Of a DNA stretch of 64,000 nucleotides, positions 3,639-63,640 are shown one piece after another. Source of the stretch: Escherichia coli (lineage in GTDB: Bacteria; Pseudomonadota; Gammaproteobacteria; Enterobacterales; Enterobacteriaceae); NCBI RefSeq assembly GCF_016026235.1, contig NZ_CP065613.1, one strand, 5' to 3'. Both the position numbers and the translations under genes were made by a program. Each line of letters begins with the position of its first letter. Positions within the stretch are counted from its first letter, which is position 1. The notes beneath the pieces are model-generated. The model did no database searches. It saw nothing but the letters and a program-made list of their open reading frames with translations, and was not told where the DNA came from.

Positions 3639-3939
3639 ATTCTATATCCTTCCTTTCAGTTATTTATTACGGCTTTCTTAAGTAGCGTGCCGTGTTGACG
3701 AGATTAACTTTACTGACTTTAGCGTCAATTAATCAGAGCAACGGTAAAACAATGAAAGTGTAAAAAACACTTTTGCGCCAATTATGGAGAAAAAAAGAAA
3801 ATTTGATGGAGAGTGATGAGCGAATATTACAACACGATGATTTTGCAGAGATTATGAAGAACTATACCGGATGACTGGTGATAAATAAAGCAAATAACCA
3901 GGATTAATCTGTATTAATTTATAAGAAAGCAACTTAATA
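3639..3939 (-). promoter_or_regulatory. spy upstream regulatory region (envelope-stress regulated in K-12)
   Basis: 301-bp AT-rich intergenic region upstream of spy; no individual binding site could be placed with confidence. Confidence 0.3.
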
Positions 3940-3962
3940 CCCGCAGAATGATTTCTGCGGGT
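3940..3962 (-). terminator. Hairpin just downstream of astE (end of ast operon)
   Basis: cccgcagaa-tgat-ttctgcggg stem-loop 6 bp after the astE stop codon. Confidence 0.45.
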
Positions 3963-3967
3963 AAGTA

Positions 3968-10031
<6,064 letters not shown>

Positions 10032-31980: not shown

Positions 31981-32097
31981 TGGGTGCCTCGGATTTGCTA
32001 AAAAAGGTAGCAATTGCGGCAAATTCACTTGCCGCATCTTTATCATCATTTTATATCCAGGCACAGGAACAAATAATATTGACAACGTGTGCTAAAA

Positions 32098-32992: not shown

Positions 32993-33973
32993 TTAACGCT
33001 CCAGGGCCTCTGCCATTTCCCTCATCAATGTTGCGTCTGCATCCGATAAGTTGATATTCAGTGCCGCGACATTTTCGCGTACCTGTTGCGGTGCAGTAGC
33101 CCCACTAAGAATGGAGATTAAATCACTCTGTTTTAATATCCACGCCAGTGCCAGAGTGGGAATTGTGCACTGATAACGAGCACAAAGTGGCTGCCACTGT
33201 TCAAGCATATCAATCACTTTCAGCATGTTTTCACGCTGGAACCAGACTTTATTTGCCCGAGCGCCGCCCGGAACGTAATCACGAGTGATGGTGCCGGTCA
33301 ACAATCCCTGCTCTAGCGGGGAATAAACCTGAACCACAATGCCATTATCACGACATAGCGGCAGCAGTTCGTTTTCCATTGCCCGGTCGAGGATACTGTA
33401 TTTCGCCTGAATAATATCCAGTTCACCATATTGCAGATACTCGCGGATATGGTCGGCATCGACGTTAGCAGCGCCTATAGCGCGAATTTTCCCTTCAGCC
33501 TTTAACTCATTAAGCACTGCGACAGTTTCAGCGATCGGCGTATAAAATGGCGGCACCGACTGCCAGTGCGTCATGTAGATATCGATGTAATCAATACCCA
33601 GACGTTGCAAGCTGGCTTCTACCTCTTCGCGGATAGATTCCGGGGAAAGGTTTTTATACAACTGCCGATTGCCAACTTTGTTGAATAAACTTCCTTTTCG
33701 TTCCCAGACAATGCCGCATTTGGTTTCTACTACAACCTGTTCACGGGGCAGTTTTTTTAACGCCTGACCGACGATAACTTCACTATTGCCAAAGTTATAT
33801 CCTGGTGCAGTATCAATCAGGTTAATGCCGCAACGATGGGCTTCAAGAATCGTATCAATACATATTTGCCGATCGAGATCGCCATTCCATGCAGGACCGC
33901 CGCCAATGGCCCATGTCCCCAACCCCATTCGCGAAAGCGTAATATCCGTTGTGCCTAAAGGTATCTTTTTCAT
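32993..33973 (-). CDS. ydjG: Aldo-keto reductase
   Basis: 326-aa ORF, AKR family. Confidence 0.82.
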   Translation of the reverse strand: MKKIPLGTTDITLSRMGLGTWAIGGGPAWNGDLDRQICIDTILEAHRCGINLIDTAPGYNFGNSEVIVGQALKKLPREQVVVETKCGIVWERKGSLFNKVGNRQLYKNLSPESIREEVEASLQRLGIDYIDIYMTHWQSVPPFYTPIAETVAVLNELKAEGKIRAIGAANVDADHIREYLQYGELDIIQAKYSILDRAMENELLPLCRDNGIVVQVYSPLEQGLLTGTITRDYVPGGARANKVWFQRENMLKVIDMLEQWQPLCARYQCTIPTLALAWILKQSDLISILSGATAPQQVRENVAALNINLSDADATLMREMAEALER

Positions 33974-34895
33974 TTGCCTTCATTATCCTTCGTATTCTTC
34001 CAGCAATTGTTCGACCAGCTTTCTGTTTTTTACGCCGGTGGTGGCACCGACGCTTAGAACCGAGATAGCCGCCGTTGCATTGGCAAAGCGTGCGCATTCA
34101 CGCAGATTTTTGCCTTCTAACAGTGCCGCAATAAAACCTGAAGCAAAGTTATCACCCGCGCCAATGGTGTCGATGGCGGTTATTCCTGCGACCGCCGGCA
34201 CCTTCATCGTCATGTCACCACGCTTGATAAAGCAGCCGTCTTTACCCGTTTTAATCACCACCGTTTTTACGCCGCACGCAAGAAAGCAGTCAGCAATTTC
34301 ATCCAGTGTCTCTTTCCCGGTGAGTAATTTTGCCTCGGCATAATTAGGAAACAGATAATCGACATAACTCAATGCTTCGCAAATATCATCCAGCGTTTCA
34401 TTCAACCGCGGTTTAATCATATCGGCACAGATAATCATCTGCCGGGCTTTAGCTTGCGTAAAAATTTCTGTTAGCGTTTTACCATCCAATAGTGGACTGT
34501 TGAAAATACTGGCCAGTGATAATAATTTCGCCTGGGAAAACCGAGCAAAATCAACATCGTCAATATTCAATTTCCACAGACTGCCGTTACGGTTTGTGAC
34601 AAACGTCCGCTCGCCATCCTCCGTCACCAGTCCAACATTAATAGAGGTATCTATGTTGACGTCCTGCTTCAGGCTTTGAATATCAATATTCTCTTTGCGG
34701 CAATGGTCGAGAATAAACTGCCCTGCGGCATCTTTACCAATACGGCTCATTAATGCTGTACGATGGCCCAGACGAGAAATAATTGTTGCTTCATTTATTG
34801 CATCACCCCCGGTGGTCATTGCGATTCTTTCAAGAGGATAAGAATCCACATCAAAGATATTTTTACTGACCGGTTGCAATGGAATATCAACAATA

Positions 34896-34904
34896 GCGGC
34901 ACCT
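34896..34904. repeat. IS1 target-site duplication, left copy (GCGGCACCT)
   Basis: 9-bp direct repeat immediately flanking the IS1 terminus; identical to 35673-35681. Confidence 0.9.
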
Positions 34905-34919
34905 GGTAATGACTCCAAC

Positions 34920-35423
34920 TTACTGATAGTGTTTTATGTTCAGATAATGCCCGATGACCTTGTCATGCAGCTCCACCGATTTTGAGAACGACAGTGACTT
35001 CCGTCCCAGCCTTGCCAGATGTTGTCTCAGATTCAGATTATGTCGCTCAATGCGCTGAGTGTAACGCTTGCTGATAACGTGCAGCTTTCCCTTCAGGCGT
35101 GATTCATACAGCGGCCAGCCATCCGTCATCCATACCACGACCTCAAAGGCCGACAGCAGGCTCAGAAGACGCTCCAGTGTGGCCAGAGTGCGTTCACCGA
35201 AGACGTGCGCCACAACCGTCCTCCGTATCCTGTCATACGCGTAAAACAGCCAGCGCTGACGTGATTTAGCACCGACGTAGCCCCACTGTTCGTCCATTTC
35301 AGCGCAGACAATCACATCACTGCCCGGTTGTATGCGCGAGGTTACCGACTGCGGCCTGAGTTTTTTAAGTGACGTAAAACCGTGTTGAGGCCAACGCCCA
35401 TAATGCGTGCACTGGCGCGACAT
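34920..35423 (-). CDS. insB: IS1 InsB (transposase C-terminal part, expressed as InsAB' by -1 frameshift)
   Basis: 167-aa [19 protein letters not shown]...; overlaps insA in the -1 frame. Confidence 0.9.
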
Positions 35424-35617
35424 CCGACGCCATTCATGGCCATATCAATGATTTTCTGGTGCGTACCGGGCTGAGAGGCGGTGTAAGTGAACTGTAGTTG
35501 CCATGTTTTACGGCAATGAGAGCAGAGATAGCGCTGATGTCCGGCAGTGCTTTTGCCGTTACGCACCACGCCTTCAGTAGCGGAGCAGGAAGGACATCTG
35601 ATGGAAATGGAAGCCAC
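35342..35617 (-). CDS. insA: IS1 InsA (transposition inhibitor / N-terminal part of transposase)
   Basis: 91-aa [25 protein letters not shown]... with zinc-finger-like CxxC...CxxC. Confidence 0.92.
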
Positions 35618-35672
35618 GCAAGCACCTTAAAATCACCATCATACACTAAATCAGTAAGTTGGCAGCATTACC

Positions 35673-35681
35673 GCGGCACCT
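35673..35681. repeat. IS1 target-site duplication, right copy (GCGGCACCT)
   Basis: Identical to 34896-34904. Confidence 0.9.
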
Positions 35682-35711
35682 ATACAAATAACGTCGAGAT
35701 TATCCATATCA

Positions 35712-36548
35712 TTATTCCGCTTTGCCATCAGAACCGAACAGTTTAATTTTTTCCAATGCCCGTTCTTTTACAGCTTTACGTACTTCACGTTCTAAATGCA
35801 GGAAAGGCTGATCCTGGTTTTCTTTCACTGCGACCATTGCGGCCTGACAGAGCTCAGTATGGATGTTGATTTTCGCGATACCCAACGAAATTGCAGTTTT
35901 AATGTCGGCATCACTGATCCCCGATGCGCCATGCAAAACCAGCGGAACAGACACGGCATCGCGTACGCGTTTGACGACCTCAAAGTTCAATTGTGGCTCT
36001 GACGTATAAACCCCATGCTGGTTGCCGATGGCGACAGCCAATGAGTCACAGCCCGTACGTTCAACAAATTCAGCCGCCTGGTCAGGATCGGTATAGTGAT
36101 AGCCCGCCAGCGCTTCCTCATAAACGGTTTCATTACCGACATGCCCTAATTCCGCCTCTACCGGAATACCCAGCGGATGGAAGAAATCGACAGCCTCTTT
36201 GGTTAAGCGAATATTTTCTTCGAAATCAAATGCGGAAGCATCACGCATTAATGAATTCATACCATGAGTCCAGGCGTTATGAATAATCTCCATACTCCGA
36301 CCATGATCCCAATGAGTTATTACCGGCACAGTTGCTTTTCGTGCCATTGATACCATCATGTGAGAGAAATCTTCAAATGAGGTGTTGCCGACAAAACCTG
36401 TGCCAAAAGAAATAATAACCGGTGATTTCGCTTCTTCGGCTGCGTCGATAACGCCCATCAACATTTCTGCATTCCATACGTTAAAATGGGCAATTGCATA
36501 ATGTTTATTTGTGGCATCGTTTTCCCAATATCTGATATCTGCGAGCAT
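35712..36548 (-). CDS. ydjI: Class II (metal-dependent) aldolase
   Basis: 278-aa ORF, fructose/tagatose-bisphosphate aldolase family. Confidence 0.82.
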   Translation of the reverse strand: MLADIRYWENDATNKHYAIAHFNVWNAEMLMGVIDAAEEAKSPVIISFGTGFVGNTSFEDFSHMMVSMARKATVPVITHWDHGRSMEIIHNAWTHGMNSLMRDASAFDFEENIRLTKEAVDFFHPLGIPVEAELGHVGNETVYEEALAGYHYTDPDQAAEFVERTGCDSLAVAIGNQHGVYTSEPQLNFEVVKRVRDAVSVPLVLHGASGISDADIKTAISLGIAKINIHTELCQAAMVAVKENQDQPFLHLEREVRKAVKERALEKIKLFGSDGKAE

Positions 36549-37628: not shown

Positions 37629-39008
37629 TTATTTATTGGCTACTGCATCAATACTTAAACTTTCAACGGAGACACCTTTGGTTTCGATTCCAATGGTGGC
37701 GATAGCAATTGCGACAATAATTGAAACCGCCCCCAGAAGAATAAAGACTCCCGTAACGCCATAACTACTGAGCAGCACTGCAACGGCATAAGGTGCGGCA
37801 ATACCACTGATTCGCCCTACCGCATTCGCCAGACCGGAGCCACGGAGTTTGGCCTCTGTCGGCCAGATCTCAGGGACATACACTGCCGAGGCATAGCAAA
37901 CGTACATATAGACGAAAGTAATCAGGAAGAAACCAATCAACGTTATGAGCAACATGCTGGTTTGCAGTGAATAGATATATCCGAGCACCGCAATCAGGAT
38001 TAATAGCCCCACACCCATTGTTTTACGCGGAATTTTATCCATCACCAGCATGGCAATAAAAATGCCAAATGGCGCGCCAAACATACTCATGGTATTTAAA
38101 ACAATCGAGTCTTTTAAATTAATCCCCTGGGTCATGAATATCGTTGGCAACCAGTTAATTAGTGTGTACTGCACAACGTTCATGGCAATCAGCACACAAG
38201 AGCCTAATATCACGCGTTTCAGTAATACTCCTGTCAGTAAGGCTGAATACGGCACCGCTTGTGGCGTTTTACCGTCATCAGCAATAACCACGGGCGGCAA
38301 AGGTTTGCCCGTCTGGTGTATGACGCCTTCTTCTATACTCCGCATGACTTTCTCGGCTTCCTGATACCGTCCGCGCGATTCCAGCCAGCGCGGGGATTCA
38401 GGAAAGTAGCGCCAGGCCAGCGCCGTAGCGATAAGCGACAATATTGCAGGGATAAGCAGTTGTACCCGCCAGTTCCACTCTGCACTAATCAGCGGCGTGA
38501 GTCCCATCGCTATCAATGAACAGAGCGGATATGACCAGTTGCCAATAAAGGAAACCCGACTTGACCACGTTCCACGATTTCTACCGGGCATATATTCGGT
38601 GAAACCAGCAAACAGCGTAACCAGTAAAGCTCCCAGCCCAACTCCCATCACAAAACGGCAGGCAATAAGGAAATCCATATTCGGTGAGAAAGCACCGACA
38701 ACCATCGAGGCAATATGAATGGCCTCATAGAGGATGAACGCATTTCTGCGACCGGTTTTGTCGCCAATGATGCCGCCCACCAGCGCACCGAGAAACATTC
38801 CGGCGGTCGTGATTGCTGAGAATGTGGCTGTGGTGGAATTATCTGTCCAGCCCAACGCTTTCAGCTGCGCGAGGATCAAGCCACCAACGGCATTACTCCA
38901 GCAGACAAGCAAGCCAAACGCGACGATGGCAAACATTGACGAATGCCAGCGGCAATCCGGTAAGCGATCCAGCCGTGCACCACAATGCGGTTTTGTTATC
39001 TGTTCCAT
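37629..39008 (-). CDS. ydjK: MFS sugar transporter
   Basis: 459-aa hydrophobic ORF, sugar-porter family. Confidence 0.82.
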   Translation of the reverse strand: MEQITKPHCGARLDRLPDCRWHSSMFAIVAFGLLVCWSNAVGGLILAQLKALGWTDNSTTATFSAITTAGMFLGALVGGIIGDKTGRRNAFILYEAIHIASMVVGAFSPNMDFLIACRFVMGVGLGALLVTLFAGFTEYMPGRNRGTWSSRVSFIGNWSYPLCSLIAMGLTPLISAEWNWRVQLLIPAILSLIATALAWRYFPESPRWLESRGRYQEAEKVMRSIEEGVIHQTGKPLPPVVIADDGKTPQAVPYSALLTGVLLKRVILGSCVLIAMNVVQYTLINWLPTIFMTQGINLKDSIVLNTMSMFGAPFGIFIAMLVMDKIPRKTMGVGLLILIAVLGYIYSLQTSMLLITLIGFFLITFVYMYVCYASAVYVPEIWPTEAKLRGSGLANAVGRISGIAAPYAVAVLLSSYGVTGVFILLGAVSIIVAIAIATIGIETKGVSVESLSIDAVANK

Positions 39009-54358: not shown

Positions 54359-54454
54359 TTTGTCCGAATTTAGCGATAATTTGTCATTTTAGCTTGATTC
54401 AACATAACAATAAAAACGGTAAGGTACAGCCTCGTTTGTAACAATGAGAAGCAT

Positions 54455-61827: not shown

Positions 61828-62029
61828 CGTTCTTTGCAGTTAATAACCTGCGTCATTTCACCTTTTATTGTTTCCGTTTCGTGTTTTATGGCTTTCCGTA
61901 TTCTTAATTGTTTAATTTATGTAACATGCAAATAATCAATTTGTTAAACACAACATACAACTCATTACCCTGCAAATAATTACAACTGGCAAAAGCCAGA
62001 GACGGGCTTTTATGCCCAGGAGATGACTC

Positions 62030-63640
62030 ATGATGAGCAATGTTAAGAAAAAAGATGTGCCGCTGATAAGCATCAGCCTGGTGGCCATTCTTTTCATCGC
62101 AGCTGCATTAAGCCTTTTCCCACAACAATCGGCCGACGCGGCCAACGCAATATACACTTTTGTTACGCGTACGTTAGGTTCCGCCGTACAGGTATTGGTT
62201 TTGCTGGCAATGGGACTGGTGATTTATTTAGCCACCAGTAAATACGGCAATATTCGTCTTGGCGAAGGAAAACCGGAATACAGCACGCTCTCCTGGCTGT
62301 TTATGTTTATTTGTGCCGGTTTAGGTTCTTCTACGCTTTATTGGGGGGTTGCTGAATGGGCCTATTATTATCAAACACCTGGATTAAATATCGCACCGCG
62401 TTCACAACAGGCACTCGAATTTAGCGTTCCCTACTCTTTCTTCCACTGGGGCATCAGCGCCTGGGCAACTTATACGCTGGCCTCATTAATCATGGCTTAT
62501 CACTTTCATGTGCGGAAAAACAAAGGTCTGAGCCTTTCCGGCATTATTGCTGCTATTACCGGCGTTCGCCCGCAAGGCCCATGGGGAAAACTGGTCGATT
62601 TGATGTTCCTGATCGCCACTGTCGGCGCACTGACCATTTCCCTTGTTGTTACCGCAGCAACCTTTACCCGTGGGCTTTCCGCGCTGACCGGTTTACCCGA
62701 TAACTTCACCGTGCAGGCATTTGTGATCCTGCTTTCCGGCGGCATTTTTTGCCTAAGCTCGTGGATTGGTATCAACAACGGTTTGCAACGTCTGAGCAAA
62801 ATGGTTGGCTGGGGCGCGTTCCTGCTGCCATTACTGGTGCTGATTGTCGGCCCAACCGAATTTATTACCAACAGCATCATCAATGCCATCGGCCTGACCA
62901 CGCAAAACTTCCTGCAAATGAGCTTATTCACCGATCCGCTTGGCGATGGTTCATTTACCCGCAACTGGACCGTTTTCTACTGGCTGTGGTGGATCTCATA
63001 CACCCCTGGCGTAGCAATGTTTGTCACCCGCGTTTCCCGCGGTCGTAAGATTAAAGAAGTTATCTGGGGACTGATCCTCGGCAGCACCGTCGGTTGCTGG
63101 TTCTTCTTTGGCGTAATGGAAAGCTATGCCATTCATCAGTTTATCAATGGCGTAATCAACGTCCCACAGGTGCTGGAAACACTGGGCGGCGAAACAGCTG
63201 TGCAGCAAGTTCTGATGTCGTTGCCAGCCGGTAAATTGTTCCTCGCCGCATACCTGGGTGTGATGATTATTTTCCTTGCCTCGCATATGGATGCGGTGGC
63301 CTACACCATGGCTGCGACCAGTACGCGTAATCTCCAGGAAGGTGACGATCCTGACCGTGGGCTGCGTCTTTTCTGGTGCGTGGTGATCACTCTGATCCCG
63401 CTTTCCATCTTGTTTACCGGTGCTTCGCTGGAAACGATGAAAACCACCGTCGTGCTCACAGCCCTTCCCTTCCTCGTCATTTTACTGGTGAAAGTCGGCG
63501 GATTTATTCGCTGGCTGAAACAGGATTACGCCGACATTCCGGCTCATCAAGTTGAACATTATCTCCCGCAGACACCGGTTGAAGCCCTGGAAAAAACACC
63601 AGTGCTCCCTGCGGGAACCGTATTCAAAGGCGACAACTGA
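62030..63640 (+). CDS. yeaV: BCCT-family transporter
   Basis: Long hydrophobic ORF (536 aa from the first ATG); the true start may be internal, I could not fix it from memory. Confidence 0.75.

Follow-up and report, generated by a model that had tools for sequence, protein, structure and literature searches.

A complete copy of the insertion sequence IS1 interrupts ydjH, a gene for a sugar kinase, in the 64,000-nucleotide stretch of Escherichia coli DNA analysed here (hereafter the window, to which all positions refer unless otherwise stated). We consider it very probable that the whole of the following account holds, the site preference included. An IS1F-type IS1 whose InsAB' transposase is intact would have inserted into ydjH by ordinary transposition, and the filling in of a staggered cut would have produced the 9-bp duplication over ydjH nucleotides 27-35. 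The insertion would have taken place after the split from strains resembling E. coli FDAARGOS_943 and would now be present in a small group of isolates; the recurrence of IS1 at this spot suggests that the IS1 transposition machinery has a preference for it. The ydjH insertion is a routine strain-level polymorphism of a well-known element, and it leaves knowledge of IS1 and of the ydj pathway unchanged.

Structure and isoform of the element

The features of the element, of the interrupted gene and of its two neighbours are as follows.

32993-33973, minus strand: ydjG, starting 9 nt past the ydjH stop; the gene on which a polar effect may fall
33983-34904, minus strand: body of ydjH (nucleotides 27-948), without the native start
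34896-34904: left copy of the target-site duplication, GCGGCACCT, corresponding to ydjH nucleotides 35-27 on the minus strand
34905-35672, minus strand: complete IS1 of 768 bp, IS1F-type isoform, transcribed in the direction of ydjH
34905-34927, plus strand: IRR, the insB-proximal end, GGTAATGACTCCAACTTACTGAT
34920-35617, minus strand: insAB' transposase, 232 aa through a -1 frameshift, intact
34920-35423, minus strand: insB' frame, overlapping insA
35342-35617, minus strand: insA, 91 aa, GTG start
35368-35358, minus strand: A6C slippery site TTAAAAAACTC for the -1 frameshift
35650-35672, minus strand: IRL, the insA-proximal end, GGTAATGCTGCCAACTTACTGAT
35651-35707, minus strand: 5' remnant of ydjH reading into IRL, encoding the 18-residue MDNLDVICIGAAVMLPTY and then a stop
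35673-35681: right copy of the target-site duplication, GCGGCACCT
35712-36548, minus strand: ydjI, the upstream neighbour, intact, with its stop 4 nt ahead of the ydjH ATG

Every feature tested that defines IS1 or its IS1F isoform is present in the element. Members of the IS1 family were recognized by a length of about 768 bp, by imperfect inverted repeats of about 23 bp which start with GGT(A/G)ATG, and by a target duplication of 8-9 bp. The first-pass annotation had described a complete IS1 with imperfect terminal repeats, an overlapping insA/insB pair, a slippery site and a perfect 9-bp duplication, and all of these were recovered: the element at 34905-35672 is 768 bp long, its IRR and IRL match as inverted repeats at 20 of 23 positions, the two reading frames overlap with TTAAAAAACTC at 35368-35358, and GCGGCACCT lies on both sides of the element, being present as a single copy in MG1655 and in FDAARGOS_943. 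Identity over 9 bp at two fixed positions has a chance probability of about 4e-6. A scan of the 64-kb window for IS1 ends found just the pair bounding 34905-35672, and a promoter-like site overlaps IRL (minus strand, 35665-35638).

A conceptual -1 shift at the A6C motif yields an uninterrupted InsAB' of 232 aa, which reaches 245 bits against NF033558, the NCBIfam equivalog for IS1 (cutoff 100), and matches PF03811, PF12759 and PF03400 (Zn_ribbon_InsA, HTH_Tnp_IS1 and DDE_Tnp_IS1) over the full or nearly full length of the profiles. Assignment to the IS1F isoform (type IV of K-12) was based on near-identity to the K-12 IS1F together with a divergence of about 9-10% from IS1A. The ydjH copy is identical to K-12 IS1F at 763 of 768 positions, with five differences, and differs from the compared IS1A/IS1B-type copies at 67-70 positions; for IS1F itself 73 mismatches to the consensus have been reported (PMC12428005). 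The ydjH copy is also 100% identical to IS1 copies of many E. coli genomes.

The K-12 IS1F (MG1655 4518472-4519239, with insA7 and the insB7 pseudogene) occupies a different locus from the ydjH copy and shares with it the length of 768 bp, the distinctive inverted repeats, reading GGTAATGCTGCC... at the insA end, and the insA / A6C / insB' layout. The two differ in that codon 163 of InsAB' is a stop in K-12 IS1F, which also has three substitutions, whereas the ydjH copy has Trp163 and a full-length transposase; one of the five nucleotide differences creates the W163 stop of K-12, giving rise to the insB7 pseudogene. K-12 IS1F has been described as immobile by itself and, when transposase is supplied in trans, as the most mobile of the non-consensus copies (PMC12428005, PMC12903888). 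Since the ydjH copy has Trp163 and a full-length transposase, it is plausibly autonomous and is an intact version of the IS1F isoform. Its relevance to IS biology is that the transposase of this IS1F-type element is intact, while that of the much-studied K-12 copy is defective.

Recurrent insertion of IS1 at the ydjH target

A search for IS1 in both orientations across 5,426 complete RefSeq E. coli genomes identified six further genomes with an IS1 at the 9-bp target of the window or shifted from it by 1 bp.

TUM1857: target GCGGCACCT, IS1B, in the orientation of the window
DSM 101139: target GCGGCACCT, opposite orientation
EC291: target GCGGCACCT, opposite orientation, far flank deleted up to ydjK
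strain 1943: target CGGCACCTA (1-bp shift), opposite orientation
O121 201805972: target CGGCACCTA, IS1A, opposite orientation
AHB18: target CGGCACCTA, IS1B, opposite orientation, with merR, merT and TEM-1 next to it

All six of these copies are 768 bp long and are flanked by a 9-bp duplication wherever both flanks remain; they differ from the copy in the window by 38-70 nt, and five are inverted relative to it. The ydjI-side flank has been lost in two of them, to an adjacent deletion in EC291 and to the mer/TEM-1 resistance region in AHB18. The isoforms found at ydjH nucleotides 26-35 comprise IS1A, IS1B, IS1F-type and hybrid copies, in both orientations.

Independence of the events was judged by differing isoform, orientation or register. 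Between the IS1 copies at these loci there are 7-70 nt of difference, the exceptions being two pairs with identical copies (1943 with DSM 101139, and TUM1857 with AHB18); in the left flanks up to 52 of 1,900 nt differ. Strains 1943 and O121 201805972 have the same register and orientation, with only 4 nt of difference between their flanks, so these two could derive from one event followed by IS1 gene conversion. The sequences compared thus point to at least five independent events besides that of the window itself.

How unusual this re-use is can be gauged from the density of IS1, which occupies at least 59,352 chromosomal places in the 5,426 genomes, or about 2.2e-6 per bp per genome if chromosomes are taken to average about 5 Mb. 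At this density about 0.02 insertions would be expected by chance at the two adjacent positions, where six were observed, a rough figure as the genomes are interrelated and the pieces counted in each record are capped in number. Across the searched region of about 3.4 kb, hits were found in about 45 genomes where about 40 would be expected, which is likewise rough for the same reasons. It is therefore the site, a natural IS1 hotspot, that is enriched and not the region. Because the same 9-mer, exact or shifted by 1 bp, has been re-used in unrelated E. coli, we infer a target preference of IS1.

Selection for the loss of ydjH or of the ydj pathway could in principle produce such recurrence with no target preference at all. 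IS1 insertions and IS1-adjacent deletions across ydjH, ydjI, ydjJ and ydjK, present in some 45 of the 5,426 genomes, would fit with this, as would the IS1A that FDAARGOS_943 itself carries in ydjK. We nevertheless consider selection unlikely to be the explanation, as it would scatter hits over the gene and the cluster rather than place at least six of them in two overlapping 9-mers, and the estimated expectation of about 40 hits in about 3.4 kb leaves the region without enrichment. A preference of IS1 for the target itself remains our reading of the recurrence. As to its stronger form, our judgement is evenly divided: ydjH nucleotides 26-35 may be a strong IS1 hotspot, apparently undescribed and used independently at least six times, whose determinant is neither AT-richness nor IHF. 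In the literature searched, no paper mentioning ydjH together with IS1 was found. The 5' end of ydjH offers a naturally replicated case of precise target re-use by IS1 and could be turned into a small assay substrate; if the hotspot is real, so compact a target could reveal how the IS1 transpososome picks its sites.

Other IS1 insertions nearby occupy ydjH nucleotides 2-10, 8-16 and 368-376 and, within the 3' end of ydjI, three further positions. Of these three, TGCCATCAG (window 35723-35731) is likewise a recurrent target: in TUM9812 the element lies in the opposite orientation with a duplication, and in MB64 and 14EC047 it lies in the same orientation with differing adjacent deletions, into ydjI and into ydjK. 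Two of the ydjH loci show larger rearrangements. In AHB18 (NZ_OZ546938.1, 1902-4169) the IS1B edges a chromosomal resistance region with merR, merT and TEM-1, and ydjI and the genes beyond are no longer adjacent. In O121 201805972, ydjI and part of ydjJ lie between two IS1A copies of like orientation (at 1902-2669 and 3742-4509 of the locus); the second copy, which lacks a duplication, connects ydjJ with ydjK, and this hints at a deletion mediated by IS1.

The interrupted gene and the origin of the insertion

The disrupted gene was identified as ydjH by its sequence and by synteny, as it lies between ydjI and ydjG in a ydjLKJIHG cluster collinear with MG1655. Deletion of 34905-35681, which had been predicted to restore a gene of 315 codons, indeed gave an uninterrupted ydjH of 948 nt (MDNLDVICIGAAIVDIPLQ...EEYEG). 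The restored gene differs from MG1655 b1772, annotated as L-glycero-L-galacto-octuluronate kinase, by 12 nucleotides and three amino acids (312 of 315 residues identical), and from the gene of FDAARGOS_943 by two nucleotides; its product matches PDB 3H49/3IN1, "sugar kinase ydjH", with E = 6e-205. The ATG of ydjH is at 35707-35705 and the duplicated target covers nucleotides 27-35 of the gene. The break falls after nucleotide 35, leaving a 5' piece of 11 codons and 2 nt, in agreement with the earlier placement of the insertion after codon 11. Because IS1 parts the start codon of ydjH from 304 of the 315 codons, the native YdjH kinase is predicted to be lost, and the inactivation proposed at first pass follows from this separation of start and body.

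The kinase might still be kept if a hybrid reading frame were expressed by read-through or from an outward promoter of IS1. A mechanical call gives such an ORF, beginning at a TTG (34918) within IRR (MESLPGAAIVD..., 311 aa), which retains YdjH from Gly10 onward, including Asp15 of the conserved GAAIVD stretch, and for comparable ORFs of other strains with IS1 at ydjH PGAP uses the label "ydjH: sugar kinase". We regard this as quite unlikely. The outward promoter-like site (minus strand, 35065-35037) is weak, matching 9 of 12 positions, and no obvious ribosome-binding site was seen by eye ahead of the TTG. Residues 1-9, a stretch that holds the first PfkB-fold strand, are exchanged for five unrelated residues, and an exact look-up of the 311-aa ORF (MESLPGAAIV...) found no match among the called genes on record. 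Loss of the native kinase is the reading that we retain.

The PGAP labels bear on annotation more widely. In most genomes in which IS1 has removed the true N-terminus, PGAP reports an apparently intact "ydjH: sugar kinase" CDS of 303-319 aa, and several of these begin within the IS1 end. Such CDSs are probably disrupted genes which have not been flagged as pseudogenes. In the window ydjH should be annotated as disrupted, and neither as intact nor as an "N-terminally variant" sugar kinase.

An effect on the next gene is also plausible. IS1 insertions are classically polar and, as ydjG lies just 9 nt downstream of ydjH with no terminator-like site between the two genes, IS1 probably lowers the expression of ydjG from the upstream promoter; ydjG may be under-expressed in the IS1-bearing strain.

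Comparison with reference genomes served to place the insertion. In MG1655, ydjH is uninterrupted, with no IS1 at the site and one copy of GCGGCACCT, which bears out the statement in the first-pass annotation that K-12 MG1655 has no IS1 at this locus. Window 13013-63007 is collinear with MG1655 (1835000-1884000) except for the IS1 element and one 224-bp difference near yeaV. This 224-bp segment (window 61934-62157), missing in MG1655 and present in FDAARGOS_943, carries the 5' end of yeaV in a longer form (ATGATGAGCAATGTTAAG...), the gene being 1,611 nt long in FDAARGOS_943 versus 1,446 in K-12; the 850 bp that follow (62158-63007) are 100.000% identical to MG1655, against 98.3-98.8% elsewhere. 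The closest complete genome is that of FDAARGOS_943, about 99.9% identical over the window, with an empty ydjH site, an intact 948-nt gene and a single copy of the 9-mer GCGGCACCT. With 98.3-98.8% identity to MG1655 versus about 99.9% to FDAARGOS_943, a K-12 or B lineage for the window is unlikely. The empty site in FDAARGOS_943 indicates that the ydjH insertion postdates the split from strains of this kind.

The exact ydjH insertion was found in none of the 5,426 complete RefSeq E. coli genomes with a junction-spanning query (34505-36072). Carrier assemblies were instead found by a look-up of the YdjG allele of the window. GCA_014155105.1 has the same element, coordinates and duplication, with two differences in 8,981 nt, and in both GCA_002466675.1 and the Logan assembly SRR17652795 contigs end at the IRR|AGGTGCCGC junction, with IRR joined to AGGTGCCGCTATTG. 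Three other public assemblies therefore share the junction, so that the insertion is neither a chimera, a doubt raised at first pass, nor private to one isolate. The description of the event as a simple transposition also holds, with both flanks collinear with the references and no adjacent deletion; "probably recent" is right relative to the empty site of FDAARGOS_943, yet several assemblies already carry the insertion. Judging from these assemblies, the insertion is now borne by a small group of isolates in a lineage with active IS1.

Over the same 70 kb, FDAARGOS_943 has five other IS elements which are absent from the window.

IS1A between astE and spy: empty site in the window at 3791-3798
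768-bp IS1, 100% identical to the ydjH copy, in the ydjF-ydjE spacer: empty site at 32081-32089
IS1A in ydjK: empty site at 37765-37773
IS5 in cdgI: empty site at about 50480
IS66 between nimT and nimR: empty site at 54387-54394

The IS content of the lineage of FDAARGOS_943 and the window changes much faster than point mutations accumulate. This relative, about 99.9% identical, thus has an empty ydjH site and a fully identical IS1 at another locus.

The identical copy between ydjF and ydjE, which corresponds in position to window 32081-32089 and lies 2.8 kb from ydjH, suggests a possible origin by a local hop with subsequent loss of the donor, and IS1 transposition is indeed biased to nearby sites (PMC5009759). 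We judge this origin to be very unlikely. The site is clean and empty, with a single GACAACGTG, in both the window and GCA_014155105.1, precise excision of IS elements is rare (one among 857 events; PMC5009759), the transposition of IS1 is for the most part replicative (PMC12428005), and identical IS1 copies are found in many other E. coli genomes. Lastly, an assembly artefact, with a collapsed or misplaced repeat and no IS1 in the ydjH of the strain, is scarcely credible: although multicopy IS1 often breaks or misjoins short-read assemblies and the exact configuration is missing from the complete RefSeq genomes, the 9-bp duplication is perfect, the flanks are collinear with MG1655 and FDAARGOS_943 with no sequence missing, the insertion is fully assembled in GCA_014155105.1, and the IRR-ydjH junction ends contigs in two more assemblies.

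Target features and comparison with known IS1 hotspots

IS1 classically prefers AT-rich regions, and an IHF-bound IS1 hotspot in pBR322 was reportedly described by Zerbib et al. in 1985 and by Gamas et al. in 1987. The duplicated ydjH 9-mer is 78% GC, while the 20 nt on each side are 70% AT and ydjH on average is 55% AT. Composition was rejected as an explanation for the hotspot: the window has 39 other positions at which AT-rich flanks enclose a GC-rich 9-mer, and other local IS1 targets are without this pattern. An IHF site was rejected as well, since a search of both strands within 100 bp of the target gave no match of at least 8/9 to the IHF consensus (WATCAANNNNTTR). A weak lead is the likeness of the target to the IS1A/B terminus, where GGTGCCGCT, read in the sense direction of ydjH, agrees at 7 of 9 positions with the outermost 9 nt of the IRL of IS1A/B (GGTGATGCT), with an estimated chance probability of about 0.2 once the positions, strands and ends compared are allowed for.

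For IS1 in general, duplications of 8-9 bp and a preference for AT-rich regions with otherwise no clear target motif have been reported (PMC5009759). The ydjH target resembles the classical IS1 hotspots in that one site is re-used, with 8-9-bp duplications and flanks that are 70% AT. It is unlike them in the 78% GC of its 9-mer and in the absence of an IHF match of at least 8/9 within 100 bp.
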